Below, piece after piece: positions 1,445-64,000 of a DNA stretch of 64,000 nt (the stretch's first letter is position 1; each line of letters starts with the position of its first letter). The notes beneath the pieces were generated by a model that worked only from the letters and a program-made list of their open reading frames with translations, was not told the origin of the DNA and made no database searches. The translations under genes and the position numbers were made by a program. The stretch is from assembly GCF_009834535.1 (NCBI RefSeq), contig NC_045696.1, positions 50,842,001 to 50,906,000 of the forward strand, read 5' to 3'. Source of the DNA: Camelus ferus (Eukaryota).

Positions 1445-4400
1445 CTGAGAGGATGAAAGGATGAATGGGAGTCTAATGCACAGGGGCAGCATTTATTTAA
1501 TTTTCAAAACCATATTATCAAAAAAAAAAAAAAAAGGGAAAAAGAGAGAGCACCCTCGGTGATGTGCACTGACGGAAGAAGACCAAGAATCCCCTAAAGA
1601 AACAATTCCAAAATCATTCACCACCATTGGCTTTAGAATGAATTACATGTATGAGTGGTGAGGATGAAGAATTTTTAATCACATTTTACATGAGGAAAAC
1701 GCTTTGAGAACATACTCCACTTTATGAAGCCAGGACAGAAAAGCATGCTAGATAGCAGAAAGAAATCAGCATTTAAAATTTGCCACTGAAAACGTCACAA
1801 AACAAAAATTAACGACTTCAGGTTACTGGTTAGGCATGTTAAGAGCTTAGACGCCGCCATTCCAGCCTAACAAGACAACTTTTTAGCTAAATAGACTGAA
1901 AAATCAACAACTCTTCCTGGATCTACAAGAGAGGGAAGGACACAGGGCAAAACGCTGCCCCCCAGACTAGAGAGACCAAAGGGTGAATACAGGGATTTAC
2001 AATTTACCAGAGCGGAGACTTACAAGCAGAAACAGCCAGAACAGCTCAAGGAACCCACTGCCCGGCAGTAAAGCCTCAACTAGATCTGACGATTTGCTGT
2101 AGCCTCAGCGTGGACAAGCCTGAGAGTTAAAAACTCCAGAGGGATGCAGTCATAAGGTGGCCCCAACAATATTGTGAGATTGTGAGCTCCTCCAGGAGCT
2201 TGACCAGATTCCTGCAGTAAAAAATCTCGAAAAATCCCCCCAGGCTTCCAGCAGAGGAAAAGGAAAAGGAGCCATTTTGAAATACACCCGAGCATTCTGT
2301 TCTCCTTAATAAGGTCTACGCTCAGGGGAAACTAATTAACCAGAGCCTGATTGACCTGGAGAGTAAGTATCCAACTTCAGCCCACTCTCACCGTCCTGTC
2401 CCACTTAAGGGGGAAGAAAAATGCTGGGAAATGTTTGTGAAATTCACAGTTCAGAGGCACCAGCTCACTAAAAAATTGAGACCTAATCACAGGACTAAAA
2501 AAATGCTTCCCCTCCCCCACACCACAAGGACACTAAAGGCCTATTTCCAGCAGTTCTTTTTACCCAGTACATCACATCTAGCTAGCTATCAAGAAAAAAG
2601 TACAAGGCATACCAAAAAGCAAAAAAAGGCAATTTGAAGAGACAGAGCATGCATCACAACCAGACACAGCATAGATATTGGAATTATCAGACTGGGAACT
2701 TAAAACCACTATAATTAATACACCAAGGGCACTAATGGAGAAAGTAGACAACATGCAAGAATAGATGGGCAATGTCAGCAGAGAGATGGAAATCCTAAGA
2801 AGAACCAAAAAGAAGAGCTAGAGCTAAAAACCACTCTCACAGATGAAGAATGCTTTTGATGGGATTACTAGATTGGACACAGCTGAGGAAAGAATCTCTT
2901 AGCTACAGGGTGTCTCAACAGAATCCTCAAAAACTGAAGAGCAAGGAGAACAAAGACTGATCAAAACAGAACGAAGAGCTAAGGACTGTGGGACAAACAC
3001 AAAAAGTGGAACATATGTGTGATGGGAATACCAGAAGGAGAAGAAAGAGAGACAGGAACATAAGAAATATTTAAAATAATAATGACTGAGAATTTCTCCC
3101 AACTTAATGTCGGATACCAAACTGCAGATCTAGTAAGCTTAGATATCACCAACCAGGATAAATGCCAAAAAACAAACAAACAAACAAACAAACAAAAAAC
3201 TACAGTAAATGAAAGACAAAGAAAAAATACTGGAAGAAAAAAAAACATCCAGAGGAGAAAAAAAACTCTTATCTATAGAAGAACAAAGATAAGAATTACA
3301 TCTGACTTCTCCTCAGAAATCATGTAAGCAAGAAGAGTGGAGTGAAATTATTTAAAGTGTTAAAAGGAAAGGAAAAAAACCCCACCAACCTAGAATTCTG
3401 CACCCTGCAAAATTATCTTTCAAAAATGATGGATAAAGAGTTTTACAGACCACCAAACATTGAGGGAATTTGTTGCCAGGAGACCTCCCTTATGAGAAAT
3501 GTTAAAAGAAGTTCTTTAGAAGAAAAATGTCAGAAATTTGGATTTAGATAAATAAAGGAAAAGCATTAAAGGAGTATATGAAGGTAAAATAAAAACTTTT
3601 TCTTATTCTTAATTGATGTAACAGATAAGAGTCTGTTCCAAACAAAAGCAACAATGTATTAGATTATGTATGCTTATGTATGTGTGTGTATATATACATA
3701 TATATGCTTGTGTATAAGTAAAATGAGTGCTTACAGATAAGCTTATATATAAGTGAAATGAATGACAGCAACTAAGATGCCCCTTCGTAGGTGAATGGAT
3801 ACATAAAATGTAGTACATACAGACAATGGAATATTATTCAGCACTGAAAAGGAATGGCTATTGAGCCATCAAAGACATAGTGGAAACTGAAATGCACATT
3901 ACTAAGTAAAAAAGGCCAACCTGAGAAGGCTATATACTGTATAATTCCAACTATATGACATTTTGGAAAAGGCAAAACTATACAGTCAATAAAAAGGTCA
4001 GTGGTTGCCAAGGGGGGACGGGGCAGTTATGAATGGACAGAGCACAGATGGTATTTAGGACAGTGAAAATACTCTGAATGATATTATAATGAGGGACAGA
4101 TATCATTATACATTTGTCTAAATGAATATACAACACCAAAAGGAACCCTAAGGGAAATTAAGGACTTTGGGTGGTTATGGCATTACTGTTGGCTCATTCT
4201 TGGTGAAAACGCGCCATTCTGAGACGTGGTGTTGATGAGCAGGCTATGCATGTGTGAGGGGAGAGGTATATGGGAAATCTCTGACCCTTCCTCTCAATTT
4301 TATTGTAAACCTAAAACTGCTCTGAAAATAAAATCCTTCTTAAAAACCGACTGCTGAAATTAATTATGTGGAAAACAGAATTGTAAGATACTTGGGCTAC

Positions 4401-7400
4401 AGTATCAACTATTCAATTAAACACCACTCTGGATGTTGCTATGAAGGTATTTTGTAGGTGTGGTCAACATCTCTAATCAGCTGACTTTAAAGATTATCCT
4501 TGATAACCAGGGTGGGCCTCATCCCATCAGCTGAAAGCACTTAAAAGCAGAACTGAGGTTTCCCTGAGGAAGAAGAAATTCTGCCTGAAGATGTAGAATC
4601 AATTCCTGCCCAAGAATTTCCAGACTGCTAGCCTGCCCTGTCAACTTCAGACCTGCCAGCCCCCAAAATTACATAAGCCAATTCCTTTGAATAAATCTCT
4701 CTTCTACCTCCTACTAGTTCTGTTTCTCTGGAGGAACCTGATGCTACAACAATGTTACATCTTCAGAATGTTGTTAACCTTGAACATGGGATATTTTAGA
4801 GATTCTACTGGACTCACCTTGAAGGATTCTGTAGGGCCTCAAAGAAGGATATTCATAAATGATAATCTTTGGGAAAAGCTCCTTTCTCTGCTACTGTGAA
4901 GCAAGTTTTATATGGGTGAACCTATAAAAAATAAAATCTCACTAAAGTATTAAAAGGGAAATTGTCATATAAACAGTTCTATTAATACAGTACTTAGTAT
5001 CTGTTACTTTATAATTTATTAGGATCAACTCCAGTAGAAAACTCAAAACTAGGCATCTTTTTCCTACAACATGGATGGACCTGGAGATCATCATTCTAAG
5101 TGAAGGAAGCCAGAAAGAGAAAGAAAAATACCATATAATATCACTTATATGTGGAATCTTAAAAAAAGACACAAATAAACTTATCTACAAAACAGAAACA
5201 GAATCACAGACATAGAAAACAAACTTGTGGTTACCAGGGGTAAAGGGGGTTGGAAGAGGTAAATTGGAAGTTCAAGATTTGCAGATACTAATATATATAT
5301 AATAGATAAACAACAAGTTTATACTGTATAGCACAGGAAACTATATTCAATATCTCATAGTAACTTATGGTGAAAAGAATATGAAAACGAATATATGTAT
5401 GTTTATATATGACTGAAACATTATGCTATACACCAGAAATTGACAACATTGTAAATGACTATACTTTAATTAAAAAAAAGGTCATCTAACAAATTCTTGA
5501 CAATGAATATAACTTAAACTGAAAACAAGAAGAATACTCATTTAAGTTTCACTTTCATTAATAGAGGCATATCTAACTCTACAATTTAAAAAATTGCCAT
5601 CAGAAGAAGCTAGAACATTGAGCAGGCATCAGAATCACAGGGAGGGCTTATTAAAGCTCAGATTACAAGCCTTAACACCAGGTTTCTGATTAGTAAATCA
5701 GGGCTGGGACCTGAGAATTCAGTTACAATTCTAACAAGTTCCCAGGTGATGTTGATGCTGCTGGCTCGGGGTTGGGGGGGGGGCACTCTTGGAGAACAGC
5801 TGAGTTAGATGAATTGTTTACCCTGCATATAAATTAACTTACATATTTGAATTAAAAAATTCATGTTTCCAGAGTAGGTTACATCACAATTTCTAAAATT
5901 TCACCTTGGACAAACTTACCAGAAATGGATGTAAACTTAGTGGAAGTGTGAAAGATAACAATATTTCCAAGCCAGAAGTAGAGGAAAATATAGTAAATAA
6001 GCCCTTGACAAACTATTTGTGTCAGCATTTCAGTAATAGCCATATAAATTGGATGGAATCGTAGGTTCACTTCTGTTACTTTTGTTTATTCCTGCCAATG
6101 TGCAGGAAGAGTAAATGAGTAGTCAAAAAATAAAAATAAAAATAGGCTGTTATAAGAAAAGCTATTTAAAACACACATTTATAAAATTCCACTTTCAGTT
6201 ACCATTTTGCAACTCCTGATTATATACCTTAGGGAGTATTCTCGGGCACAGAGGGCACTGGAAGTCCTTGTACCCAAGATTAGGTTCTTGCTCTTCTTCA
6301 TCCCTCCGCATGTGGGAACCTAAGACCCATAACAGGCTGTCTTCCAACTGGTAAGTCGCCTTTTATTCTTCAATTCAAGTAAATACCCATCACTTCAGCT
6401 TGGAACAAGGCTTGTGTTTATAGGATGGATACTCAGTGAGATAATGATAATGTTGAAAACAGATAACATTTATTGAGTACTTACTATGTACCAGACACTA
6501 AGTTTGACATGAATTAATTTCCTTAAATTTCACATCAACCTTGTGAGGTTGTATATCATTTTTATTCCCACCTTATTGATGGGGAAACTGAGGAAAAGAG
6601 AGGTTAAGTAACTTGCTTGAAGTTATACAGCTGGTAAATGCAAGAGCGTGGATTCAAGCCAGGTGTTGGGGCTAAGAAGAAAATGGAACTAAAAAGTAGT
6701 AGATTCAAGGGGAGGGTATAGCTCAGGGGCAGGGTGTTTGCCTTGTAAGCATGAGGTCCTGAGTTCAATCCTCAGTACCTCCAGCGCTACCAACAACAAA
6801 TAGCAGATTCTATGAATTTAGTGAGAAATGCATTGAGACATTTCTAGATTCCCCACTTACAAGGGAATATTCTGTAAGATATGGGGGTCACAGAAATCTG
6901 AATGGGCATTCAGGCAAATCTTTCACCTGTTTAGGTCTTGTCTATAGTAAGTAAAAATACTTCTGCTCTTCCAGATCAGAAGCTGCTGTGGGGTTGGGTT
7001 TGCTGTTTTGCTTTATTTTTAGTGGAGACCTGGAACAGTAAGTCACTATATACTCATAGTCATACTCAACATATAGATTCACCCTATCTTTTCTGGAAGA
7101 TAGTTTATATGCCCCGGAACACATTTCTCACAGGTTTCTCATAGCCTCATGGAAGAATTGCTCATCCACAAATAGATAACTGTTTCAGAAAAAGTGAAGC
7201 AATGTGGGCAGTGGAGGAAGGCCCCTGTCACGATCCAGGCTCCAGAAGCCCCAGCACACATGGAGACGAGCCCCGTGGACACACGAGTGCTCGGAGTCCA
7301 GGGGGTACAGTTTAGGGTGAGCATTCTTGACCACATTCTTGACTTCACTACATCCCTAAGCACTGACCTCAAGCCAAATTATCATATAGCAAAGTAAAAT

Positions 7401-10400
7401 GGGCATTCCAAAACTCCTGTTGGCCACAAAGTGATAGAAAAACAAGTGAGTTAGATATTGCTGAGTCCTCTGCAGATGGTGTGGACCCCAGGGCTCATGA
7501 CACCCCAAGATGGCCCCAGTTGACTTCCCTCCAGAGAGCCCGTGACCCTCACCTTGGGCCCATGAACATTTGCAACAGCTGGTCCCACAGTACCAGGTAC
7601 TTGTATACATCTAGCCTTGGGGTTTTTTGCTTTTTAATATGGATCCTGTCTCTTTAGATGGATTTTAAACTCTGAATTCACAGGAGTCATGAACCCTTCT
7701 TCCTCTGAATCCCTGCATGTTTTGAGCATTGGCTGCAGAGTTTTATACAATAAATTCTTGCTGAATTCATTAATTCGTCTTATAACAAACTCCCTGAAGA
7801 CAAAGACTTAATTATATACACATGCTATATCCAGATAGATGATCAAGAAGGAAACAAACCTGAGATTATCTTTGACTCTTTCATCTCACCACATCCTTAG
7901 GCAATCTAAGTCCTGTTTTTGGGTCTCAGATTTCCTCATCTTCTCCATCCCATTGCCATGTCCCTGCTTCACTCCCCAGATCAAGAATCTTCAAAACCTC
8001 CTCACTCACCTCCACTTCACAACTAAATCTAACCCGATCAAACTGTTTCCCACTGCTTCCTGCAGGCTTGGCCCATTCTCTCTGCTGGAGCCACATCAGT
8101 CTTTCTGCCAGAAGCCCTGGCCTCAGCATTGTGCTGTGAAGAGGGCCCTGCACCTCCTAGTTCCTTCTGGTCTGCTCACACCCAGCAGGAAGGGCAGGAG
8201 TGGGGATTTGGTATTTGGATCCGATCCCTCTAGAAACCCTCTTGAGCATCTCATGTGGAACTGCTGCTTGTTTCAGCCCCCAATCCTGTATATTTCTCCT
8301 CCTTTCCCTCATTGTCTCTCTCAGCCTCATCTGAATGGATGGTCCTCTCATGACTCCAGTGACACCGAGAGGCATCCCTCAGGCCATTGGTTACTGGTGA
8401 GAGTAGATCTAGGGACACCTGCTTTAAGGAGCAGAGAGTAGAAAAACAGCCAAGAGTAAAGCTCAGTTGTGGGGCCATTGCTACAGGGAGGTCAGGTAAT
8501 TAGAAAAGTATTCTTCAGATTTGGCTATTAAGAGGGCCTTTGGTCACCTTAGTGAGGTGATGGGGAAACAGACAGCAGATGTTTGGCTCTGGATGAAAGC
8601 TTAAAGGTCACTGGGTAAAGAGAATGTATGGTCAGAGAGGGGCCTTTTAAACTGAGAACAAGTTGATTTAGTTTGCTTTTGGGCTGAGGATGGAAAGCCC
8701 AAGGAAGTAGAGGCTGAAGATACAAGAAAGATGATGACTGATGGAGACAGACACCTGAGGATGAAGAGAGGCTCCAAATCACACACAGATCCTTTTGTCA
8801 ACTGCTCGAAACTACTGAGTGTGCAATCTGTACTTCATCTCTAATGTTCAACTCTATGTTCACATCTTACCTGGCATTTAGCTCTAATTCATATGTGAAT
8901 TATCATTTGTGTTATTCACCACAGTGTTTTTGCAGAATAGCAACATACCATTCAGTGTGAAAAACCTGCATGACTGTGGGAAGTCACTGAACCTCTATTA
9001 GCCCTGGTTTCCTTATCTGCAAAATGAGATGGTAGTATTATTAATATAATAGTGTACTATTGCATGGGATAATGTCAGTGAAAGCAGTGGCTGCAATCAC
9101 GGAATTGAAATCCACACATTTACTACCACAGATTACTCACATAGAGGATGAAATTAACTCAAAGACTTCAAAGAGATTTTTAAACTCATTATACGCATAC
9201 ATATATTTAGAATTTATGGCACAAAATAAGTTCTCTGTAGAGTTTTATTTTTAACATCTAAGTTTTCTATGTCTACCTCTTTTAGACTCATACCATCTCC
9301 AGTTGACTTAAAGCTGTGTCCTTTTCAACCTAAGTTCTAAAGGTGACTGCTTTGGAACCTGGTAATAAACAAAAATAAAACGTATGTATATAGCCCAAGA
9401 AAATGCCTTAAAGACTGCTGTGCATTTCATGTAATCCCACAGTACTGCATGTGGCCCTGGCACCTCACAGTCCAGCTGGTCTACAGAACAAAGAATTTTT
9501 TTTCTAAGTTAGTAAAGACATACCCCAATGACACCAATTCCTCTGCCACTGCTACTTCGCAGGTAGGTCTGTTCCTTGGTTTTCAAATTTAGAAGGATCA
9601 GCTGGTTCCCAGCTATGTACATCACGGTATTGCTGTCCAGAAGTTGTAGGTTGGCCCGCTTTCTGCAGTCATAACCAAAGGAATGTCTGAGGGAAAGCTG
9701 CTAAGGAAAAGAGGTGAACCAAAGTAACCACCCTAGAGACAGGAAAAGCAATGAAATCAATATGTTAAAAAAAAAAAAAAAAAACCAAATCCTTAGATAA
9801 AGATTCAGTGTTGAAGTATGAATTTTACACCAAAACTCAGAGTTTTTAAAAAATGTATTACTAATGCAATCTTGTTTTTAAATTATGTAAAAATTCTCCT
9901 ACTCTGATTTAGTCAATATTTTAATTTTCTTAGGAAAATCCTGAAAGCATACTAATTTTGTTTGCAGTAAAAAATCAAGTTAAACTTTCAATTTGGGTAC
10001 TATAGAGAGTAAAGTTGTCCCCTAAATAACTTCATTTCCCTCTCTCCTGCTGAAACTAAATCACATCATAATGCGGGAGGAAGTCTGTCTTTGTCATCTT
10101 TGTTCTCCTAATGCCTGTTTAGTTTGTTGACTGAACACAGTAAAATGATCCTGTAGGTCTCTTCCTTGATGCTGAAAGATAAGCCGTTTAAAATTCTGAC
10201 ATGCTTGTGAAATTGACACACCAGTGATTATGTAATAAATTCACATAAATATAATTGAAATGTTATCACATGAAAAACCATGAAAACTGACTAAATAATA
10301 TGTAGTATGTAAGAATATAAAATAAATACCCTAACATTTCCTTTCTGAGATTATTAGTGTGTATGGGTGTGTAGATGAGTGTATATGTGTGTGTGCATTT

Positions 10401-13400
10401 ATGCTATAGAGTAAAACTGCATTAATTCAAAATAGAGGTTTTAAAAATCTGAGTTATAAAACATCTTTTAAATGTACTTTATCACTCCATTCAAATTCAA
10501 ATTACTATAACCCAAGATATAAATGTAATAATAGATCAATCTATTAAAGAAATTATAGCTTGCCAAAGAAACATATTATAGCGTATCTTAAGGAAATAGA
10601 TTCCTATTTTCGAAGAACTCACTGCTGAACACAAAAGTTGAAGAATCATTGGAGAAATCTTTATTTCTTGAGCCCTTATTTAAAAAAAATCTGATTTTAG
10701 AGAATTCACCTTATTTCTAAGTAAATATTTTCAGAGAAAGAAATTATGTGGAACTTTTAACAAGAAGGATATATAGAATGTAAAAAAAAAAGATTTTAAT
10801 GAATGCGATTTGAATTGTAAAGTACATACAAATTATAATGAACTACAAGTTACTTTCCTTATCTCATTGTCTAACAGTTAAATTGAAAAAGAGAGAGAGA
10901 ATATTTCAGAACATTTGATCTGTTCAAGAAAAAGGAATTTTATCAATTTAAAAGATATAAATGCCTAAAACTGAATCTTATAAAGGCATATGAGTAAATA
11001 TGTGATCCAAGCTCTAGATGAAGCTGCTCTGGCCTCGTGGTTAATATCCGAGGACTCTTTACAAAGAAAAGAGTGGAATCGACAGTCCCTGGTCTTCCAG
11101 AGTCCGGTGCAGGGCAGAAGTTTTGCCTACCCTCTCCTTCCCTCTCCCCAGACTACGCTCTCACCTTTCCTTTTTCCTCCTCCCCTTTCCCTTTTCCCAG
11201 GCGCCAGTGTCATACTTCAGAGGGCTGAAAGTATGTCTGTAACTGTGAGAGTAGAAGTGGGCTGCCATCTCTTCACGACCTTGGATGACAGTGGGGAATC
11301 AGAGATAGGATCGGCTACCTAGTATTACCATGTCTAGTTTCAGGGAGATGACTCTTACTTGCTGCTGCTTCGATCTTAGTGGGTGAGACTGTAACTTCCC
11401 AAACTCTTTCCCTATAAATCACAACCTGCTTGAGGGCAGAGACTGATTCTCACTCCTCTCTGCTTCCTGGAATGCAGACCACAGTGTTTAGAGCCTATTA
11501 AGTTGAATGAGTGAGTGAGTGAGTTGAATGAATGAATGAATTCATAACTGGAGCCTGATCTTTCCCTTCTAACCCCAGAGGACAAGGCAGCCCCTAAGCA
11601 GAGCTCTGAAAGTGTTTTCACCTCTTCAGGTGTTCTGATATACATTCAACTCCCTTCTGTTTTGTCTTACCCTCCCTTCTGGCTCTTCTTCCTAACTTCC
11701 TATCAGAGGCCCCGGGCCCTCACTGTTCATTCGTGGCCATTGAGGACCTCTGCGTTAAAACGGGGTTTAAATACCCTGTTAAGTTCTGTTTGGCGTCTTT
11801 TATGACTTATGCTGTGGTTTAGGTGATATGTTATAAATTACACATTTCTTGATTGATTTAGAAGACAGAAATGTTAAAACTGAAGTAGATAAAGAATTGA
11901 AAGAGTACATGGGGGATATATGACAGCTGACTTCTTTGAGCTTCTCACAAGAAATAGAGATTACATTTGTTCCATCTCTAGGGAGTAGGACTAAGTCTAA
12001 TGCAGGACATTCCAGAGAGGCAGGTTTTGATTCAAGGCCTGGAAGAGCTCTCTAATAATGCAAGCTGTTCAAAAATGAGATAACTTTGTGTGATTGCTCT
12101 GGTTGTGAAAGTGTTTAAAAAAAAAAATCTACAGCTTATGCAGCCACTCATCCAGCGTGTGTGGAAAGGATTCACGCATTGTGCCAAAAGTCAAGGCCTC
12201 TCTGACTCCATTATTTACAAACTAGGCTTCTCTCTCTAACACAGAGATCCTTGCAGCCTGGAGCAGCAAGTCCCCCGAGGTGGGGGCCAGGAGAAGGCAG
12301 CACAAGCACAAGTTACCGAGAGGAGACGTGATGAGGAGACCAGGAGGCCTCTGATTCTGTTCCTCAAGGCTGTCTTCTCTGTACCTCATGTGATGAATAC
12401 TGTGAAAGCACTAATGCCTGGCAGTGGCCCCATCAGTGTTTCAAGAAGGGAGATCAAAGATTTTAACTGACAGTCATTGAAAAGAGGCTGCCAGGCTGGT
12501 AGAGGAGGTGAATGGGGATCAGAGGCCTCCTGGTCTCCTCATCACGTCTCCTGAAAGGACAGCCAGAAAAATCATCATTTCTCATTACGGTTGTTTGGCA
12601 TCAAACAAAATCTTAGTCTAAATTAAGAGCAAGCTTTTCTGTCTCAGCTTCTCTAAAGGCCAAGCTTTTTAGAATGACCCAAGACAGGGGTTGGCAAACT
12701 TTTTCAGTAAAGGGCCAGGTAGTAAATATTTTAGGCTTTGTGGGTCAGATTGTCTCTGTTGTAACTGCTTAAATCTGCCCTTGCAGTGTGATGGCAGCCA
12801 TACACAAAAGGTAAATGAATGAGCAGTGCTGTGTTCCAATAAAACTTTATTTAGGAAAAAAGGCCAGGGGCCAGATTTGGTGCATGGGCTCTAGTTTGCC
12901 AACCCCTGACCTAAGAAGCTGAAATTCCAAGACTATATGTATGTAACTGGAGTGGATACACAAGTGTGAGAAGATCCAGTGGTATGTTTGAATCCGGAGT
13001 CACAAAAGGCATCGAAACAAGTTCCATATAATTGTAGAAGAAGCTCTCTGATATTTTCTTCTTAACTTCCTCCTCTGCCTCTTCTGCAGCTGGGACAGGA
13101 GTTTCCATATACTGAGATTCTAAAAAGTTAAAATGTTTTAACTAAGAAGAGTGTCTGCTCAATCCTAAAATCATGTTTCATGAAGACGGGAGCAATGTAC
13201 CCAGTCTGTCTTACTCCAGCAGTAACTACGACTACTGGCCCGAACATAGGATGCCACCCACTAATGAGCATGGGCACCGAGGCACACGCCTGTGTGCATC
13301 AGGGTGAACGCTGAGCCCTGCTCATGATCCCAGCAGTCCCAAAGAACAGTTCCCAGTCAGTTCCAAGAGAGAGTTGTTCTCACTAATCTGGGGTAGATCA

Positions 13401-15933
13401 CTCTTTAGACCATCCCCACTCCCCAGGAAAACCCAGTATGAGAGTATGTGATCCTCAGAAATAGACTAGCCAACCCCAGAGCTGCTAAACCACCCTATCA
13501 GCATAAGATTGATGCTCTTTCTTTTATCACCCCCACATATCTTGCAATTTTTTTTAATGGATTTACAACTGTTCAGTTTGGGCAATTTGTCTTTAAAACA
13601 GTGACAACTACTGAACTGATTTAAAAAAAAAACCTAATAATACTTACCACCAGTGCTTTCTGCATAATCATCTTGAAGTGAACTTGAACTTCTTTCCAAA
13701 TGTTCCATATATGAGTCATTGTCCCCTGAATATGATTCTTCCCCTTCAGTAAATGTTTCGTCTGTGGTATCTTCCAAAGATTTGTAATCCTCTTTCATAG
13801 CAGCTATTAAAAATCCTTTGTTTTAATAATTTCTAAATTTTAATGAAATATTTTCTTATTTCCAAAGTAGCTAGTACTTCCAATTCATTTGTGTTCTAAG
13901 TTGAATGAATTTTAAGCTCAAAAATCCCTACAAAAATCATTTTATTTGGTCACTCATAACTTTACAAAAATTTTTAAAAGCTTTTCCTGTGAGTTAATCT
14001 CTGTTTTCACTTCATTTCCAGTCCACTTCCACTTACAAGAAAATAAAATAGAAAGAAAAGAAGATTGGTCAAGTATGCTGCTATTACTTTTTTAATTCAA
14101 TTTGATTTGACCAAAACTTATTATTTATAAGGACCTTTTATGTCAAAGATAAATAATGCACATTCAAGAACAAACTTGTCTGGGTATGACTACCTCTGAG
14201 TGATATCACAGGAATAAGTTAGACTGTTTGCTTCAGGATAAGCTAGAAGAGAAAGAGAGTTGGAATGGGAGTAGAACAGACCTAGGTATAAGCCAACATT
14301 CAGATCAAGTCCAAACATGGGTATGGTTCAAATATACCATGTCAAGCAGGCGAAAGGGCGGGGTGAACTTTCAGGAGAACAAGGCAGAAATGGTAAGTAT
14401 GCCAGAAACAGTAGAACCACCGACTAGATCTATTTGAGATGAGGCTAAAAGATGAGGAATAAGGCCCAAGACTAACATAGATGAGGTGGGAAAGCTAAGC
14501 CAAGCCAATTAGCAAGACAACAGGACACGGTTCTGTAGGATTCGTGTATTTGTATAGAAAAAAAAAATTATCTTGGGCACCTAAATGGGCCCCACTGCTT
14601 GAATTCCCCCAAGGGAGAGCCTTGGGTAACTACCCTCCAATAACACCATTTAACAGGTATCTTAGATCTTTCTTGTGACCATCCCAAGCAAAGATTATTT
14701 CCCCATCTCAACACTAAAAACTTGACGTGTCGTCCTGCGACTTACCCCTGGGAACAGAGTTCAAGTTGCCATTAGATGAGTTAAGACTGCCAGTGAGAAT
14801 GAGAGAATCATTGATAAAGGAATTGGCAGTGAACACAGATAAAGGAGAATAAATCATTTGTTTTTAAATTGAAGTATAGTTGATTTACAGTGTTGTGTTA
14901 GTTTCTGCTATACAGCATAGTGATTCAGTTCTACATATAAATTTTATTTTTCATATTCATTTTCATTACAGGTTATTACAAGCTATTGAATATAGTTCCC
15001 TGTGTTATACAGTAGGACCTTGTTGTTTAGCTATTCTGTGCATAGTAGTTTGTATCTGCTAATCCTAAACTCCCGATTTATCCTCCCCCCCGATTTATCC
15101 TACCTTTCCCCTTTGGTAACCATACAGAATTTAATGTAAATTTTGTAAATGAATTGATTTCCCCAGGACCTGATCTCCTGTAACTGGATAGTAAAAACTG
15201 TATTTCTGAAACTATATTTAGGATTAGAACTAAAAAAAGTCAAGATTCCACCAGGCTACCTAACACCATGATGTTCAGTCAGAAAAAGGCAGCCATCTTT
15301 TAAAACTCTTATTAATTATTAAAAATTATTAATCTTAAAAATCCTTCACTTCCCCTTCCATCTGCACTCTGTGATATCCTTCCATGCATGTCATCCAATT
15401 TAATCTTCAAACAGCTCACAATCATCATTTTAATAGGTGAGAAAATTGAGGCTTAGAAAGGTGAAATAATTTATCCAAGATCAAACATCTCAAAGTGGTA
15501 GACCCAGGACTTAAAACTGAAATCCAGCTCTTCTTTTCCACTACAGTGGTGTAAGAGAAGTCCATTAAAGACTTTGTAGACCCTACAGGAGAAAGCCAGC
15601 AGATGTGAAGATAGGTCATTATCAACACAGAGATGACAGTACCTTCTGTGTTCCAGGAGCTAGAGATGAAATGATTAAAACACAGACTCTGCTCTTAAAG
15701 AACTTAAGGTTTAATAAGGGAATTAAATGAATAAATATCATTCTGTCATATAAACTTAGATATGTATTCTTTAAAATATTATTCTACCTGAATTTAATAA
15801 TAAAGACCCTAAGTGTAAATTATAATCTTTACTTACATCTTGTTGCAGATTTAAAGGACCGAGACTGCCTTTCATCACTCTTTGATCTATCTGATTTTCC
15901 CCCATCAGTATCCTGATCATCTGGTTCCTTCAT
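1228..15933 (-). CDS. CFAP44: CFAP44/WDR52 (cilia- and flagella-associated protein 44), 5' coding part: exons 15837-15933, 13648-13803, 12960-13119, 9524-9686, 4818-4921, 1228-1444; gene continues past the left edge
   Basis: Spliced translation [14 protein letters not shown]...[95 protein letters not shown]...[86 protein letters not shown] matches the recalled CFAP44 N-terminal WD40 region. Boundaries are GT-AG, and synteny with SPICE1 fits. Confidence 0.95.
1810..4340 (+). mobile_element. Old L1 (L1MC-like): 5'UTR/ORF1 remnant (~1810-3600) followed by 3' end (~3770-4340)
   Basis: Degenerate ORF1-type sequence (gaaagtagacaacatgcaagaatagatgggc..., aagaattacatctgacttctcctcagaaa) and L1M 3'UTR motifs (gaatggatacataaaatgtagtacat, ggaaaaggcaaaacta...gtggttgcca). 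Confidence 0.75.
4390..4748 (+). mobile_element. ERVL-type solo LTR (MLT2-like)
   Basis: ggatgttgctatgaaggtattttgtagg...gggtgggcctcatcccatcag...ttctgtttctctggaggaacc, typical MLT2 motifs. Confidence 0.7.
4818..4921 (-). CDS. CFAP44: CFAP44 exon 6 (104 nt here; a 3n+1 length is needed), carries an apparent 1-nt insertion
   Basis: Acceptor TAG|GTT CAC CCA ([14 protein letters not shown]), donor CAAG|GTGAGT; the 3' half reads [16 protein letters not shown] only after removing one base. Confidence 0.88.
5060..5479 (+). mobile_element. Lineage-specific L1 3' end with A tail
   Basis: acatggatggacctggagatcatcattctaagtgaa...tactgtatagcacaggaaactatattcaatatct...taaatgactatactttaattaaaaaaaa. Confidence 0.85.
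5605..5800. mobile_element. MER5A-like hAT-Charlie MITE
   Basis: gcatcagaatcacagggagggcttattaaa...ttctaacaagttcccaggtgatgttgatgctgctgg. Confidence 0.7.
6440..6665. mobile_element. MIR SINE
   Basis: acatttattgagtacttactatgtaccagacact...gatggggaaactgagg...gaggttaagtaacttgc core. Confidence 0.75.
6709..6800 (+). mobile_element. tRNA-derived SINE (camelid Vic-1-like), diverged copy
   Basis: ggggagggtatagctcag...gtcctgagttcaatcctcagtacctcc with A- and B-boxes; approximate TSD aa(g)tag(t/c)agattc. Confidence 0.75.
9524..9686 (-). CDS. CFAP44: CFAP44 exon 5 (163 nt)
   Basis: CAG|A CAT TCC TTT GGT ([17 protein letters not shown]...GIGVIG) GGG|GTATGT; phase 2 in, phase 0 out. Confidence 0.93.
12321..12552. 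repeat. Perfect 35-bp inverted repeat (12321-12355 / 12518-12552) with a 162-bp spacer
   Basis: aggagacgtgatgaggagaccaggaggcctctgat is the exact reverse complement of atcagaggcctcctggtctcctcatcacgtctcct. Confidence 0.95.
12685..12908. mobile_element. MER58A-like hAT MITE
   Basis: 16-bp perfect TIRs caggggttggcaaact / agtttgccaacccctg; 8-bp TSD acccaaga / acctaaga. Confidence 0.88.
12960..13119 (-). CDS. CFAP44: CFAP44 exon 4 (160 nt)
   Basis: TAG|AA TCT CAG TAT ATG GAA...([24 protein letters not shown]...LDLLTLV) GT|GTATCC; ORF 12911..13108. Confidence 0.92.
13648..13803 (-). CDS. CFAP44: CFAP44 exon 3 (156 nt), acidic low-complexity segment
   Basis: TAG|CT GCT ATG AAA GAG...([52 protein letters not shown]) G|GTAAGT; phase 1 to 1. 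Confidence 0.88.
14860..15123 (-). mobile_element. L1 3' end fragment
   Basis: ttttaaattgaagtatagttgatttacagtgttgtgttagtttctgctatacagc...ccctttggtaaccat. Confidence 0.8.
15837..15933 (-). CDS. CFAP44: CFAP44 exon 2 coding part with start codon (exon begins at 15938)
   Basis: CAG|AGGAA ATG AAG GAA CCA ([32 protein letters not shown]) T|GTAAGT. Confidence 0.9.
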
Positions 15934-17259
15934 TTCCTCTGTAAGCACAAAATTGAGAGAGAGAAATAGAGAGAGCTGTAAAATAGAAATCACTGACAGA
16001 TTTTTTTGCCCCAAATTCCATGAGAACCAAACACCATGTGTGTTGATAATCCTATGTTTGCATGGTATCCGAAATGACTTTACCATCAGGTGGGTACAGC
16101 CACCATCAGAGACCTCTGCAGAATGGCAAAATATAATCAGATATTCCCTTCCTCCAGGCAAACTTTTCACCGTGGTGCCCTCTGGTTTTCCAGAAAGCCA
16201 CAGTGAAAATAAAAATTAACCCTCTGCCAGCCTTCCTTTGGTTTACCTCCTTCTCTTCCTCCTCCCATCATCAAATTCCCCTGGTGTTACTAACCAATTT
16301 CAATTTTTAAATATTGTTGAGGACACCTTCTATGTATCAAATCTTATGTTAGCTAAATTATGGTACTGAACTAGAGAGGTATGATCCCTAACTTCGTGGA
16401 GCTTGTTTAGAAAGATAGGTGTTATACAAGCAATTAAAATATAATGAGTGTTACCAAAAATAGGGTGCTGTGCGTGCATCTAGCAAGAAGATTAAATCAT
16501 GTCTGGGGTTAAGGAAGAGGCATTTGAAGACACAGGGTGATGGGAGATCTTTAAAATCCAAATTCTATCATCTAGTACATTTTATATTCCTTTCAGTTTG
16601 GATACACAGGCTTGCTTTCTGTGCTCATACAAGTGACTCACTTTAGAATGAATAATTAAGTAATATCTGCTATTACAAGGCAGCGTCAGTTATGGCAGGT
16701 TGATTGCAGATGATCACATACTGTGGGTAAACATGTTCAGATAGCCACAAACATATCTCAATGCCATTTCCTCCCTTGATTTCAAGGTTCTCCACAGTTT
16801 AAAGCAGTTCAATTCTTAAAACTATTGGTCATCTTTATATACAGATGATACTATGTCAGGCCCTGCAGATGATACAAAGATGAGCACTATACAGCCCTTG
16901 GCTCTAAACAGTTTACAGTCTAAGAAAAAGAAATTGACAATTCTCTTTTCATATCATCTCAGAATAAACTTCTCTTCTAAATCACTGATTCAGACCCATC
17001 TGAGGTTGACCAGGATGGTCTGATCATCATGATTGAAGCAGCACTCTAAATGAAGATTTCCTTGATAAAAATCAACATTTAAGGTACTGGAAGGAAACGA
17101 AACTACTCTCTAAAGTGCCATGATGCAGGCCCCAAATAGGTGGAGGTAAGGCAGTCCCTCAACAAAACTGAACTGATATTCTATTGTTGCTATTCAATTA
17201 AGAACTAAATGAAAAATTTTAGTCTGCAAATTTCAATAACACTTCAGTCTGTAAACAGG

Positions 17260-22965: not shown

Positions 22966-23960
22966 AGGGTGTCAAAAAGTCAGAAGACATAGGATAAACT
23001 AATTTTTTATTGAAGTATAGTCAGTTTACAGTGTGTCAATTTCTGGTGTACAGCATAATGTTTCAGTCATAAATATATATGCATATATTCCTTTTCATAT
23101 TTTTTTCATTATAGGTTACTACAAGATCTTGAATATCTTATGCTATACAGTATACTGTATAAACTCGTTTATCTACTTTATATATAGTAGTTAGTATCTG
23201 CGAATCTTGCACTCCCAATTTAACCCTTCCCACCTCCCTTCCCCTCTGGTAACCATAAGTTTGTTTTCTGTGTCTGAGTCTTTCTGCTTTGTAAATAAGT
23301 TCACTTGTGTCTTTTTTTAAGATTCCACATATAAATGATGCCATGTGGTATTTTTTTTCTTTCTGGCTTACTTCACTTAGAATGATGATCTCCAGGTCCA
23401 TCCATGTTGCTGCATATGGCATTATTTTATTCTTTTTTATGGTTGAGTAGTATTCCATTATATATAAATACCGTATCTTCTTTATCCAGTCATCTGTTGA
23501 TGGATATTTAGGTTGTTTTCCATGTCTTGGCTATTGTAAATAGTGCTGCTATGAACACTGGGGTACATGTATCTTTTCGAATCAGAGTTTCCCCCCTGGA
23601 TATACATCCAGGACTGGGATTGTTGGATCATATGGTAAGTCTATTTTTAGTTTTTTAAGTAATCTCTATATTGTTTTCCATAGTGGCTGCACCAACTGCA
23701 TTCCCATCAGCAGTGTAGGAGCATCCCTTTTCTCCACACCTTCAGTATTGGATAAACTTATTTTTAAACAGCATGTTGGTTACATTTTTCAAATACTATG
23801 CTCAACATGTTTTATTTCAATCTCCAAACATCTTTTCAGGTGAAACAGCTCTAAATTTAAAGCACTGGGTCCAGTTATTAGTTTGAGAAAAACACAAATT
23901 CACTACAGAATGTCTGAAAAAATCCAGAAACACAGAAGGAACAGTGTATTTATTTGTACA
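22966..23960. mobile_element. Tc1/mariner-class MITE (DNA1_Mam-like) interrupted by an L1
   Basis: cagggtgtcaaaaagtcagaagacataggataaact resumes after the L1 as ggataaacttatttttaaacagcatgttggttacattttt; family name recalled, not searched. Confidence 0.55.
23008..23749 (-). mobile_element. Young 5'-truncated L1 with a 16-bp TSD
   Basis: TSD ggataaact(a/t)attttt at 22992-23007 and 23750-23765; TTTTT/AA endonuclease site; ORF 23138..23458 begins with an ORF2 C-terminal-like peptide ([32 protein letters not shown]). Confidence 0.9.
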
Positions 23961-30000: not shown

Positions 30001-33000
30001 ACACAGTTGCAAAGAGTTGCAAGGATGCCAGGTACAAGGATGCCAGTTTGCTTCAGAACTTCAGACAAATCACTCAACTTCTTTGTGCCTCAGTTTACTT
30101 ATTTACCGAATAGGTCTATCAGCTTTGTCTACTCCGAGGGTGTGCTGAAAACTAAATGAGATGACAGAAGTGCAAGTATTATTAATCTCAAAGAACTAGT
30201 GAAATAAATGTCTCATTTAATCATAAAATTATTCTTAAGAGTGACCTGCTTTATTCTTCTTCATTGCACTTATCACCAACTGATATTTTCTCATATATTT
30301 ATTTGCTTATTTGTTTACTGCCTGCTCCCCAACTTGAATACTGGAGTAGTCAGCTGGGCAGGGACTTGTCCTGTTCGACACAGTACTCCCGGTACCCAGA
30401 ACATGGCAGGCACACAGTTGGTATTCAGATACATTTAGTGATTTAATTTATTCATGTCAATCAGAAGTTCCCTCTAGACTTTCTTACTATGAATAACAGG
30501 AGACAAAGCTATAATGTGAAGGGGCCCAGAATAAACCAAGTAGAAGGGTCTTAGGGAAATAAATTATCCAACATTTTCCAATAATTTCCAAATCATTCTG
30601 CTTTCTGGCTCTATAGTTTCAAAAAGGAAGTAACTCCTGTGAGAAAAAGTCTTATTGGCAGACACCTTAAAGGTAACCTACCTCAGCCAGCCACAGGACA
30701 CAGGAGTCCCTTTAACACACCACTTACTGATGCAGAGCTTCTATTCCTGACACTTAGAACCTCCCCTCACACCAGGCCTAACTTAGTCTCTCTACAACAT
30801 TCATGCAGCTCTACCCCCAAGGGTCTTAATAATTCAAAAATTTTTGGCTAAACAGCAATTTGAGATCTACTGCATTTCATCAGTACTTTTTTTAATGTGA
30901 ATACAATGACAACTAATTTTTCAGTTACTTTTCTATTATTTAGAACCCCTTCCAGCTTTCCACATTCCTAAATGAAACAACAGAACAGAAAGTTTAATTT
31001 ACAAGTGAAAATGACTTAATGGTTTTAACAGAATAGTAACTTGTAATTTGTAATTGCTAATGCAATTCTAAATGATCATTTTGCTGCTATATAATTAGCT
31101 GCAGCATATGTCCTAAGTGAATCATACACTGTGATCAATCCCATGTACATGTAGGGCAATGTAGGAACTCAGACACCAAAGATTAACTGCATGGGATAGC
31201 TTTTTATCAGAAGACCCGCCTCCTAGTCCCATTTCTGTCACTTATTCTGTGACTTAGGTCTGTTTCTTTCTATATAAAATTGAAGACATTGAAATATCTG
31301 CTCTCTGAGATTTCTTTTGACTAAATATTTACTCACAAAATCAAGAAAGTGAAAATGTTCATATGTCTAAGCTTTTAAGTCATAAATTTGTGACTAACCA
31401 GTCCATGCTCTGAGAGGTGACTGAATAGGTGACATTGCTGGCGGGGAAGGATTCAGACCGATGAGTTTCTGCTGCTCTAGTAACTGCAGGAGTTTTTCAC
31501 GAGCCTCCATACTCTGCCGATTCAATTCTGCAATTCGTTCTTCCATGCTACTTGGTGTTAGAGGTTGTACTGCTGGAAAAGTCTTTAAAAAAAAGGGCAC
31601 AGATTCCATGTTAGAAATAATCCAAACAATTATGACTTTTTGTAAAAATAAACTCTTCCACTAAGAGCCATCAAAGTATTCATAGCCCTTGCTACATGCA
31701 AACTTGTCTAGTAAGCGAGTAGTAGTAAGATTAACAAATCACCTAACATTTAAGGCTAAAGTAAAGGGATACTAATTTTCTACTATTGGTGCCACATAAG
31801 TTCTCTAGTCCCTTTGTCCATGGAGAGTGTCTGTGGGACAGAGCAAAACCTCCCTGCACCTCTTAGTGTTTGTTGAGCTGCACAAAGATCATATGAGCAA
31901 AGACACTGCTTGTAGTGACTGGCTTCTAATTAACATCCCTATTAACACGCTGATTGCCACGTCACCCAAATCTAGGTGACAGCTGTGTCTCCTCAGGGGC
32001 ACCAGATCCACAGTGGGTGATCAACAACAGTGTTACAGACAGGTCTGGGGTTTGAATCACAATATACAAAAGAGGATCTGCTGTAGTTGAAACAGATGCT
32101 TCTATAATTATAATCTTTATACCTGCATCATGAGCTATTTGGCAAAGATTTGTAGGAATCTTATACTCCTTCTGACCGTGTGTCAGCCTCCCCGGGCTAC
32201 TCTAGCCTAAGACATCTGATTCAAGAAAATGTGTGACTGGAAAGGAATATGAACTGAAAAGGAGCCACCCAAGGAGTATAACGTAAGTTTGATTTGAAAA
32301 TTGTTGAAAGGAATGTATATGTCACTCTTAACTATTCACTTAGTCTAATATGTCCCTTTGGGAGAAAAACAATCCCTAATAGAAATCACTAATTTGTAGC
32401 TTATGCTCACTAGTTAAAAAAAGAGACAAGTAAAACAGTATGAATTAAAAATCATTTTGTAATTCCGATGAGAACAAAAAGGGCAGTGAGGGCGATAATA
32501 TTAGATTATCCTCTCTAGCCTGATTGCTATACTAAGAAAAGGGGGCGAGCTCAATTTTTAATTCAGTGGCCTTTTTTAAACCAAGAGTTGCCTGTTTCAA
32601 ATAACCTTCAAAACTCTGCAAACATAGAAGTGCCTCCATGGACTAAAACCGAGGCAGTCTGTACTCACACACAACCGTATGGATGACTGCTGCCCTGCTA
32701 ATACTCTTTCGTGGCCCCTCTGCCAGTGCGTGACTGCTCCTCCTGTGACTCCATACCCATATTGCCCGTAATCCCCATGAGCCAGTGCTACCAGGGATGC
32801 CCTCACCCCCACCCTCCCCTGTAACCTTCCTCATGGAAGCCCTCAATCCCCCTCTGGTAGAGTCCTTATGGAAGCAATCACCTCTGGAACCCCTAGTCCA
32901 AGAAGCTGGCCAGCTCCTTCCTGCTACTAAAATGAAGCCCCATCCCCTATCAGAACCCTGACAGGTGCCACCTTAGCTCATGAAGGGGTAATAAGAAGTC

Positions 33001-36000
33001 TCTCCCATTACTGGGACCAGCATGAGGATGTGTGTTATAAATACTCCACACCTGGAACTTAGAATCCCTTTTCTCCTCACAAACAAGGAAACAAAGGTTG
33101 ATGTTACCAGGTCAGCTCACAGTTTACTTAACTTACAGAATTCCAGCACTACAATGTGCAGACATTTGCTCCTCAAAATGTAATCCTCGGACCAACGTCA
33201 CCTGGAAACTTATTAGAAATGCACAGGCCCTACCTCAGACAAACTCAATCAGAAACTGCATTTTAGCAAGATGATTTCATATGTACATGAACGTTTGACT
33301 TTAGTAATTCTGTAAAACATCATTTCTATAGAAAAATGCACTCTGTGTCCTAAAAAATCATCTACTCATAAGCTGAGAGACAACTACATATAATTCTATT
33401 TAATGAGCACCTTTAAGAGTAAAAATGATTTCAATTAAAACATAGTTGTGTGGCAAACTTTCAAGACATGTTAACTCTACATTTTATATTTAAAACTTCA
33501 TCCCTAGCTTAACTTTAGCTTTCCTACACTTTTTTTACCTTTGTCCTATTTTCCTCATTCATTTTGCCATTTTTAATGTTATGCTATCCTCTTTTAATGT
33601 CTGTGCAATGTAAACAGATAAATAACCTCTACTTATTTTGTGACGAGGACATGACAAAGCATAAGCTATCTAGGGGCAGGGTCACTTCTGGAAGGAAGTC
33701 CCTTAAGATGTTCCAGCAATATACTTAAATTCCTATATGTCCACAGTCAATCCTTAACTGGTACTCACAGCGGTCATGTCACTGGCATGACTTGTCTCCT
33801 GTTTGTTAAACTCCCGAAGTCCATCCCCTTGCTCTCCTCCTGGCCCAATAATATTATTCAGATGTGCCTTGATAGCTGAATTCTGCAGTGTCAACTCAGC
33901 AATTCGTGCCATGATGTCCTTTCTTTGTATTAACGTCTCATTTGTTCTAAGCTGTTGTCCATCTCCCAGTACTGGGGGTTCTTCTGAGAATGCAGGGTTT
34001 CTCGATTGCTGACCACTTGAATGGGAGCTGCAGAGGGGCTGAGAGAGGTTAACAAAAGGGGCTTGGGTTTTGTTCCCCAAATCTTCTCCCATGTGAGAGG
34101 CCCTCCACCTCTGAGTAAAGAGGTGACTCTCTTCACTTGAATTCTGAACGTCTGTGCCAGTAGGTAAGGTCTTCTCCCAATTTTGTTCCTTTTCAATTAT
34201 TTCCACAGTTGGAGGAATTCGTGGAGCAGGCCGAGTTTGAACAGTCCTCCTCAACACTGTAGATTAAAATTAAACCATAATAAGCATCTGTCATTTATCC
34301 ATAGTTGGCACTATAATCATCTCATTACCCATCATGAGAGTTAGACAAGTATTTCAACAGGCGGGCTTGGCTTCTGAATGCCTCAAGAACAGACCAGCAA
34401 GGCCACCTCTAACAGTTAAGTACAGGGACTTTTATATCCTTAAACCTTATTAGCATCCATGTGAAGAACCAGCTACCAAGTTCACATTTTAACACATATA
34501 TTAAAACTCACATCTGGGAATCTTGAGGTGGGGGGAGTATAGATACATAATATAAACTGAGGATGGGCAGGGAAAGCATCTTTGAAAAAGTACAAATCTT
34601 AGATAATTACATACGTGGCAAAAAGTAAAGCAAAGAACATTACAGTCAGAGAGAACAACAGATGTGAAGGCCAGTCTAGCTACAGCATGGCAACAAGGGA
34701 GAACTGGGAACATGCGAGCCTGGAGAGGCCTGCAGGGGCCATTTCTTGAAGAGCTTTTTAAACCATGTTAGGAATTTTATAATTTAATCCAAGAGCAATG
34801 AAGCTTGGAGAAGCCTTGGCAATGACTCAATTTATATATTTAACACTTCTTAAATACTGTGATAACTAGAAGGTCCAGGAACAGAAGTAGGGAGACCAGT
34901 AAGCAACTGTAGCGGGCAAGAAGATAGATGATGGTAGCTTTGACTAAGATATGTTGGCTATAGAAATGGAGAGTAGGAGATACACTGTGAAGTATTTTAG
35001 CAACAGAACTGAGAGTGATAAGCCAAAAGTGGGGAGTGAGGGCAACACATAAATCAGGACAGCATGCACAAGTGCATGGATGGAGAAGATAGGGAGAACA
35101 GATTTGGGGGAAGAGAGATTATCAAGAATTGTATTCAATATGCTAAGTTTAAGGTGCCTAACAAGTCATCCATATATCTATCCAAGAAGATGAAACAGGG
35201 GTCAGAAACTCAGGAGGTCATCTGGGCTAAGATCCAAAACTGGAAGTCACTGGCTTATAGAAGGTATTGGAAGCCACGAGAACAAGTGAGGTTACAGAGA
35301 AAAAACAGACTGAGAGAAGAAACCAGTAGCAAGACATGAAGGACTCAACATTTAGAGTTGGGTGAAGCAGGGGAAGCTGGCAAAGTAGAGTGAAATGGAG
35401 CAGCAAAAAGATAAGAGAAATAATACAAGAATGTGGTATCAAGGAAACAAAGAGGCAGTGGTTAACTGTGGGTTACACTGCTGTAAGACCTAGAAACGTA
35501 AGGTCAGAAAAGTGTACCCTGGGCTTAGCAACATGGTGCCACTGGAGCCCTACACAGGAGTGAGTGGTCTAGGTAGATTGACCTAATTGGGAGTGAACTG
35601 GGAAAAGAGATGGTTCTGGTTCAAGACTACAGACTGAGCACACATTTATCTCACCCTCTTTCACTGACAGTAAGGAAATACAAAAGAAAATAAACCCACA
35701 ACAGTAAAGATAATGGTCTGGGGAGAAGCACTAGCAAATCAGATATTTCAACACATTTCTGAAAGACTGAGAGTGTATGAGAAGTGTGTGAAAGAATGAA
35801 ATTGAGCGGAAGCCACAGTTCAGAATATGTCTATATTAGAAGAAAGCTACAGGCAAAGCCAGTCTCTTCTGGGGGCACTAAAAAGGCTGCAGGCTCAACG
35901 CTGACAGGTACAGAGAAAGAGAAAAGGAGGACTAAACTGGTGAATTACTGGAAAGTTTCTTTCATACATTTATATCCGTTAAGCTGTTGCTCATCACTTC

Positions 36001-36107
36001 CCCCACCCATCCTTGAAAGCAAAAAAAAAAAAAAAAGAAAGAAAGAAAGGGAGGGAGGGAAGGAGGGAGAGAGAGAAGGGGAGGGGGAGAGAGAGAGAGA
36101 GAGAGAG

Positions 36108-36170
<63 letters not shown>

Positions 36171-36179
36171 ACGAAAGCA

Positions 36180-36217
<38 letters not shown>

Positions 36218-38362
36218 GGAGAGCAAATGTGGTAGGCCCAACTGAATAGCTGGATCCTGCTTGCCGACTCTAAAGGAAGCCTGCAGTTAACACCTCATGC
36301 CCATATATACAAAGCAGCTGCTTTAGCCAAAATCTGTTGGGAAAACAGATCTAGATGTAACTACATCACAGGGAAGAAAACTTTTGCCAATCACCTATAC
36401 TATTTAATCTAGTCATTTATTCTGAAATATGAATGGACAATAAAGACATATGAGGAAAGCCAGCAGTACAAAGGTAAATAGACAAGAGACTGAGAAGAAA
36501 AAAAAAAAATCAGGTACAGAAGAAAATGTAACAAAATTTTAACTGGTATCCTCAGAAGATATTGCATTCATAATGAAAAAAGGACAATCAGACAATAAGA
36601 AAGGAACCTTGCTTGAAATTTTAAAATATGATTGCTAAAATATAAAAATGTAAAAGACAGATTTGAGTATAAAGTGAAAAAAAATTCCAGAATGTAAGAA
36701 GGAAGATATAAGACCAAATACATGAGGAAATAATCCAGAAGGTCAACATGTAATTCCCCCAAACTGCTGCAGAAAGTCATGTCTTCAGACTCAAAGGCAC
36801 CACTGGTGCCTGACAGCATAATGAGAAAAAAAAAACCCACATTTAAACACACCTTGTGCAATTTCAGAATAAAAATAAAGGATCCTAAAAGCTTCTACAG
36901 AGAAAAAGAAGGTCAAAAGTACAAAGAAATAAAAGTTAGATACGGCACCAGACATCTCAATTCCAACACTGGAAACTAAAAATCAATGGAATAATACCTT
37001 TATTTCTCAGTAAAGGGGACTACAGAACTAGAATTCTACTTCTAGCCAAATTATCAGTTAAGTGTAAGAGAAAAACTAAAATATTTTCAGATTTTCAAAA
37101 ACTGAAAGTTCACCTTCTATATACCCTTTCTGATGACTTCTTTCAGAAAACTGAGGGAGAAAATCAAAGAAGAGGAAGAAATGGAATCTAGGACACAACA
37201 GGCTCAACCCAGGAGTATGATAACCACAAGTCCCAGTACGAGAGCTGCACAGCAGGCCCCGAAAGCAGTCAGTCAAGACTGGAGCAGGGGCTGGGGGGCT
37301 TTGGGAAGGGATCTGTGGGATGAAAGTGGATTCCGTGCCAAAGACAGCATGACTAAAGGACTTGCAGATATGATGAATGTGCATTATTCTTTTGTCAACA
37401 AGATGGTAAAAGCAGTCTGAACTTTCAGGCAAAATAAAAACTGAACAAGAAAGTCCCAGTATGTAGAGCCAACTAAGATTCTGAGCAAATGATGAAGTGA
37501 AATAAAGAGAATTCACCTTGATCTTCATACTACAAACTTTTTCCTTTTGTATGGAACAAGGATTGATAGTAACAATGGACACCAAAAGAAAATGTAATTG
37601 TTATTTGCTTGCAATGTTCAGTATCCAACCATAGATGAGACACAGAAGACATGATTGTAATAGAACAATGTAAATGTTATCAAACTTGATACTATTAAAG
37701 GGAAGGCAAACTTGACTGATGGTGGGATGTGGAAACGAAGGAGAGGGGGAAGGAAGGGAAGGGAGCTAGTGTCCTCACCTTATATAGCAGAAAGCCAAGA
37801 GATATTACTTAAAGTCAATGAAGGAGAAATTGAAAGTATTTTAAGTCACAAAGTTATGCAATCGAAAAATTAAAAATAAAAATATAATTACCCAAATTAG
37901 AGAAGAGAGGTAGGTGTTAATATGAATTAAACCCTCTTCTTTTATAAGGGAGAGTCTGACACAACATTGTAAAATGACTATAACTCAATAAAAAAATGTT
38001 AAAAAAAAAAAAAGGGAGAGTCTGCAATGATTGTGTGAAGTTGATATTTCAAGAAAAGAGATATAAAATATTTTATGTTAATTATGAAGACAACCAGCAG
38101 AAAAACAGAAATCAAATTGGGATAAAAATAATTGCTTCTTTTTTTTTTAATTGAAGTACAGTCAATTATGATAAATTTGGGAGTTTGAGATTTACAAATG
38201 TTAGCCACTATATATAAAAATAATTGCTTTTGAGGTAGGCCTAGAGGTAGGGGAGGAGGAGACCCTTATATGTGGTTTTTTTTAAAACCACCTGCAAACA
38301 TGAATTAAATTAATACTTTAAAACAAAAAGTGAATGGGAGAAAGTAAAAGTGAAACTAGCAC

Positions 38363-38416
<54 letters not shown>

Positions 38417-63315: not shown

Positions 63316-64000
63316 CTATATAGAAGAAAAAAATTTACAAGAATATTTCAGAGACAAAGAACTTGCCTATTCAGATGATAGGACCATCTAATGTAGTCTA
63401 TCTTTGAAAATTTTTTCTAGTCCAACATATGTATATTTATATATATTCACAGCCATTTTCACAATCTTCTAAATTTTCAAAAATGATTTACAAAAAGAAG
63501 TATCTAAAACTAGTAGACCTAGCTAAAAGACAAAATGAAAAGAATGTTAATTTCTACTTCTTTTGTACAAGCCTATCCAATAAAGCAGTCTTTTTCAAAC
63601 TGCAGTTGGAGACTTAGTTAATGAGTGGTAAAATAAACTAGTGGATCAAATATTTATAAAATAAAACAAAATATAAAACAGCAAATATTAAGAATACATT
63701 GCACAGAAGAATATGAAAAGTAATATACGTATGTTCATGTATGACTGAAACATTGTGCTATACACCAGAAATTGATATAACATTGTAAATTGGCTATATT
63801 TCAATTTAAGGAAAGGACACACTGCACATAATGAAAGTTGAAAATTGTTTTGTTAAACTTTTCAGTTACATATGTGTGTACATGTACAATTACACACATA
63901 CAACTGACTTGAGTATAACATAAAAGGCACAAAACCCACTGAGTCATCTTTGGCAAAGCCACACCCATTCCATGATATTCACATCACCACCAAGAACTAA

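Follow-up and report, generated by a model that had tools for sequence, protein, structure and literature searches.

The CFAP44 Locus

The window, by which we mean the whole analysed stretch of 64,000 nucleotides, covers positions 50,842,001 to 50,906,000 of contig NC_045696.1 in assembly GCF_009834535.1 of Camelus ferus, the wild Bactrian camel. It contains six coding exons of CFAP44, all of which are encoded by the minus strand. In the first, the coding part extends from the ATG at 15931-15933 to the donor (15837-15933), while the second (13648-13803) and the third (12960-13119) were both found intact using tblastn and mapping of the RefSeq protein XP_032335093.1 (P0123). They are followed by an exon of 163 nt at 9524-9686, which ends ATT GGG/gtatgt in phase 0, by the fifth coding exon at 4818-4921, and by an exon of 217 nt at 1228-1444, which starts cag/AT GGG in phase 1 and needs one carried-over base.

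That the gene is CFAP44, as the original prediction had it, is confirmed by matches to solved CFAP44 chains, by tblastn and by an orthologue search, and the orthology extends along the whole protein. The orthologue search used the peptide of the exon following the fifth; of 271 candidates, 172 matched at E <= 1e-20. Among the 120 of these that are listed, nearly all named entries are CFAP44 or carry the older name WDR52, and a few are called only "hypothetical protein". A single cluster among the matches listed has 100% identity to the query; it is represented by an alpaca CFAP44, and the 15 members listed out of its 30 belong to alpaca, dromedary, domestic Bactrian camel and Camelus ferus.

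The neighborhood of the gene is conserved as well. A minus-strand open reading frame at 46951-47265 matches the Pfam SPICE family (PF15678, 3.5e-34), and SPICE1 is presumably located directly upstream of CFAP44 also in human. Exons of SPICE1 share the strand of CFAP44 and are found upstream of it, within 31394-48144. A Pfam search using the long open reading frames at 33754-34263, 40354-40707 and 31394-31660 gave no match. A purine-rich simple repeat at 35781-36294, inside a SPICE1 intron, leaves several frames open on both strands and encodes peptides of the types KKERKKER... and SQPASQPA....

Two features concern the 5′ part of CFAP44. The dromedary isoforms X1 (P0127) and X2 (P0121) have 51 extra residues upstream of the usual ATG. 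In the window the corresponding stretch (15838-16086, minus strand) is open, with 100% identity, and an upstream start here is at least possible. Furthermore, two acceptors are found 14 nt apart at 9686-9700 (minus strand), ttag/CAGC... and ctcag/ACATTC. The second is used by the RefSeq-type models, while the first is read through in P0124, a GenBank model from dromedary; the choice made in P0124 would be either an annotation difference or the use of a tandem acceptor.

The window also contains an interspersed repeat. Two copies, at 5067-5484 and 23003-23409, lie in opposite orientation and are 83% identical over 418 bases, and weaker copies are found at 14861-15085, 52208-52389, 63707-63819 and 54752-54843. 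To judge by its open reading frames, the repeat may correspond to the end of L1 ORF2.

The Fifth Coding Exon Is One Nucleotide Too Long

The minus-strand boundaries of the fifth coding exon are ag/GTTCAC...TTCAAG/gtgagt, giving a length of 104 nt. Since the upstream exon ends in phase 0 and the downstream exon starts in phase 1, this exon must be 3n+1 nt long, and 103 nt are required. The original prediction, where it was called exon 6, had noted this discrepancy, and both the splice borders and the phases of the flanking exons bear it out.

The two halves of the exon match CFAP44 in two different frames. Frame 1 encodes 22 residues before it reaches a TGA at 4853-4855, while frame 2 carries a CFAP44-like peptide of 19 residues. 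For the first half, matches to solved CFAP44 chains are found at residues 191-208 of 8j07_i7 (E 0.0035) and 193-210 of 9fqr_H9 (E 0.0056); for the second half, which is read in a frame shifted by one, the match is to residues 207-226 of 9fqr_H9 (E 4.4e-06). Both halves were also recovered by tblastn with camel CFAP44 as query (7e-14).

When the window's six coding exons are joined as assembled, the TGA is reached in the shifted frame after 214 aa, which reproduces the stop and the product length given earlier. Exon skipping had been said not to restore the frame; indeed, when the exons are joined without 4818-4921, a stop follows after 221 aa. All the coordinates and numbers of the original prediction were found to be correct, and a break of the reading frame is present in the assembly.

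A truly extra base could be tolerated if the gene were rescued by a cryptic acceptor, by a +1 ribosomal slip at AAA-G, or by shorter isoforms starting downstream. A cryptic acceptor is found 34 nt into the exon (...cacagtagcag/AGAAAGG), and its use would leave the frame open, with 4 residues in place of 15. Relatives also have gene models whose start is downstream of the exon, one example being P0125 with 1550 aa. However, the cryptic acceptor has a poor pyrimidine tract, and the residues that would be removed belong to the stretch aligned to the solved CFAP44 chains and are conserved among orthologues. As for the slip, the codon following AAA is, in our reading, not a known stalling signal. 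Taken as an explanation of the extra base, rescue is extremely improbable, and it is the least probable of those considered here.

The Remainder of the Gene

Mapping of P0123 on the assembly, which is partly circular since the model was built on this same assembly, gave 35 colinear blocks separated by 34 junctions and corresponding to 34 coding exons over about 92 kb. All 33 introns are GT-AG and join the exons with exact translation, and the remaining junction is a skip of one nucleotide without an intron. Compared to the dromedary isoform P0132, P0123 differs at four of 1845 residues (207, 1317, 1511, and 1845). This near-identity shows that nothing else in the gene would have needed repair.

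These results bear on the question of whether CFAP44 might be a unitary pseudogene fixed in the species. The premature stop is the one point in favor of such a loss. A pseudogene would be expected to display several independent disabling lesions together with relaxed constraint, and this is not what was found: there is a single lesion over 34 coding exons, every intron is canonical, and the protein has hardly diverged from that of the dromedary. Moreover, loss of CFAP44 is reported to cause male infertility in mouse and man (PMC5814398), which argues against its fixation. We thus regard a fixed loss as very improbable.

Which Base Is Surplus?

The original prediction proposed that one base is to be removed from the TTTT-CCC-AAA run, and homopolymers are a classic site of long-read consensus errors. 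Each of the 104 bases of the exon was deleted singly, and the resulting peptide compared with those of RefSeq and of the sister species. Removal of any one base at 4867-4877 yields the RefSeq peptide, which has an alanine. Only one of the 104 removals, that of the coding-strand C at 4878 (minus strand), located between GAG and TTTT, yields the peptide of dromedary and domestic Bactrian camel. Without C4878, the translation agrees in all of its first 298 aa with dromedary P0132 and with domestic Bactrian P0130.

The alanine is unusual also in a wider comparison. Nine camelid proteins were printed, eight of which span the site, while the ninth begins downstream of it. The peptide AEKGVFPKIII is found in seven of the eight, P0123 being the sole exception. 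In a set of 134 proteins, 115 orthologues match the motif pattern, and the residue at the site is V in 54, S in 43, I in 9, F and Y in three each, N in two and A in one; the only alanine is again that of P0123. The 19 proteins outside the pattern comprise two with S in a variant motif and 17 that lack the region or the motif.

It follows that removing a base from the run does restore the frame, as was proposed, but leaves an alanine that none of the seven other camelid proteins carry. A homopolymer error is accordingly not the best description of the lesion, as C4878 is flanked by G and T and its removal gives the sister-species protein exactly. If the error were placed in the homopolymers, a change in run length and an independent V-to-A substitution two codons away would both be needed, while a single insertion of C between GAG and TTTT would explain the frameshift and the odd alanine together. 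The surplus base thus probably lies outside the T, C, and A runs and is better placed at 4878. This position is inferred by parsimony from the proteins of the relatives, not from their DNA.

The RefSeq Model

The break has left a trace in the public annotation. XP_032335093.1, which derives from the same assembly as the window, has the title "LOW QUALITY PROTEIN: CFAP44 [Camelus ferus]". In RefSeq usage this label denotes a model that has been corrected against a suspected genome error. P0123 is identical to the translation of the window for 210 aa, and then, in contrast to it, continues past a skipped base. The base omitted is 4867 (minus strand), seen as a skip of one nucleotide at contig position 50846867; dropping it reproduces P0123 over its first 298 aa. 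A base is skipped in the exon at 4818-4921 and nowhere else in the model.

P0123 retains an alanine at residue 207, whereas the sister species point to C4878 as the surplus base, the removal of which gives valine. The alanine is found in P0123 because the correction dropped 4867 rather than the likely insert C4878, eleven positions away. It could be misread as a species-specific substitution by users of the public protein. The frame break as such is already known, since the RefSeq model is flagged and reads through it; what is new is that the surplus base is probably to be placed at 4878, outside the homopolymer runs.

Consensus Error or Null Allele

Two explanations of the extra base, both already given in the original prediction with an assembly error as the likelier, are left to be weighed, and the one we favor is that the frame break is an error in the consensus of the assembly, which we consider probable. 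One extra C, at window position 4878 on the coding strand, would then be a single-base insertion that was left uncorrected in the consensus and does not occur in the gene of the animal. The true exon would be 103 nt long and encode the same peptide as in other camelids, and CFAP44 would be an ordinary functional gene.

The window's assembly was, we assume, made from long reads with short-read polishing. Several observations argue for an error in it. The insertion is the sole lesion in a 34-exon gene that is otherwise exact, and there is no sign of decay, as only four of 1845 residues differ from dromedary, one of them beside the break itself. Removal of C4878 not only restores the frame, but also gives the valine found in all seven other camelid proteins. 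The label on the RefSeq model points in the same direction. That long-read indels may stay uncorrected and interrupt reading frames is recognised as a problem of camel assemblies (PMC6618069; PMC7468183). The former of these reports gives the numbers of short indels corrected by Pilon as 564,275 (first round) and 101,228 (second round), and refers to Watson and Warr (2019) for uncorrected long-read indels, while the latter describes the contigs of the window's assembly as much longer than those of other camel assemblies. The present case resembles the known artefacts in that one base is inserted into a conserved coding sequence that is otherwise perfect, in a chromosome-level assembly. It differs from them in that the base lies outside a homopolymer, which is a point against a consensus error.

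According to the other explanation, the sequenced wild camel does have the extra C in its germline, as an insertion that is private or rare and probably heterozygous. C4878 would then be a true null allele of CFAP44 that segregates in the wild Bactrian camel and is present on the haplotype that was assembled. Both the insertion and its status as such an allele are possible, and we consider them rather unlikely. The allele would encode a product of 214 aa without almost all of the 1845-aa protein, or its mRNA would be lost to nonsense-mediated decay, and it would be recessive for male infertility. The assembled sequence itself carries both the insertion and the stop, and the position of the insertion, outside a homopolymer, suits a real allele, as does the intact state of the remaining gene, which is what would be expected of a young one. 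A second haplotype copy of the region was sought in the assembly, where only one match was found, so that no second haplotype contradicts the insertion. A heterozygous carrier would be healthy and could truly have a recessive null on one haplotype, and small endangered populations can hold such alleles. The wild Bactrian camel is critically endangered, with a very small population.

However, all the points that suit an artefact fit at least as well as those for a real allele. The original prediction had called for a comparison with other assemblies of this and sister species, and at the protein level four other camelid assemblies, two from dromedary, one from domestic Bactrian camel and one from alpaca, encode an intact exon. 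By our own rough estimate, breaks of frame in the consensus would also outnumber true frameshift alleles in haploid long-read consensus sequences.

The consequences of losing CFAP44 are known from other mammals. Male mice homozygous for a Cfap44 knockout were reported to be infertile and to have severe defects of the flagellum, and a group of infertile patients with abnormalities of the sperm flagellum included six men with bi-allelic mutations of CFAP44 (PMC5814398). The camel lesion is like these in being an early truncating lesion of the same gene. It is unlike them in that the phenotype is known in mouse and man, while the camel break is known from an assembly only and may not exist in the animal. 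Given the infertility of the knockout mice and of the affected men, a homozygous null would be selected against. Taken together, a consensus error is more likely than a true infertility allele, and we infer that C4878 is absent from the DNA of the animal.

Public Sequencing Runs and Literature

Public sequencing runs contain the region around the exon. Among the runs listed, 20 of 24 contain all or part of 4000-5060, and these come from 11 studies. When 101 words sampled from 4000-5060 were considered, the top DNA run contained a share of 0.97 of them, and 13 others, one of them another run from the same sample, contained 0.93-0.94; these gaps correspond to 3-4 of the 101 words, and it cannot be read from them which site differs. 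Two RNA runs labelled reproductive system contained 0.64 and 0.60 of the words of this mostly intronic stretch. Such shares would fit abundant pre-mRNA or carry-over of DNA, and are evidence neither of expression nor of an allele.

Metagenome contigs were scanned for stray camel DNA with 44 bases of the exon, requiring an exact match, and none was found. When the literature was searched for CFAP44 together with camel, neither term was present in the title or abstract of any match.

Implications

If the extra base is an artefact, screens for gene loss or for the load of loss-of-function alleles in endangered species that trust the assembly as it stands would wrongly count CFAP44 as knocked out in the wild Bactrian camel. 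The RefSeq correction would at the same time have planted a spurious alanine at residue 207 of the protein. If the base is real, and homozygous, defects of the sperm flagellum and male infertility may be expected by analogy with mouse and man. In so small a population C4878 would then be a candidate allele for infertility, and genotyping for it in conservation breeding would be worthwhile.
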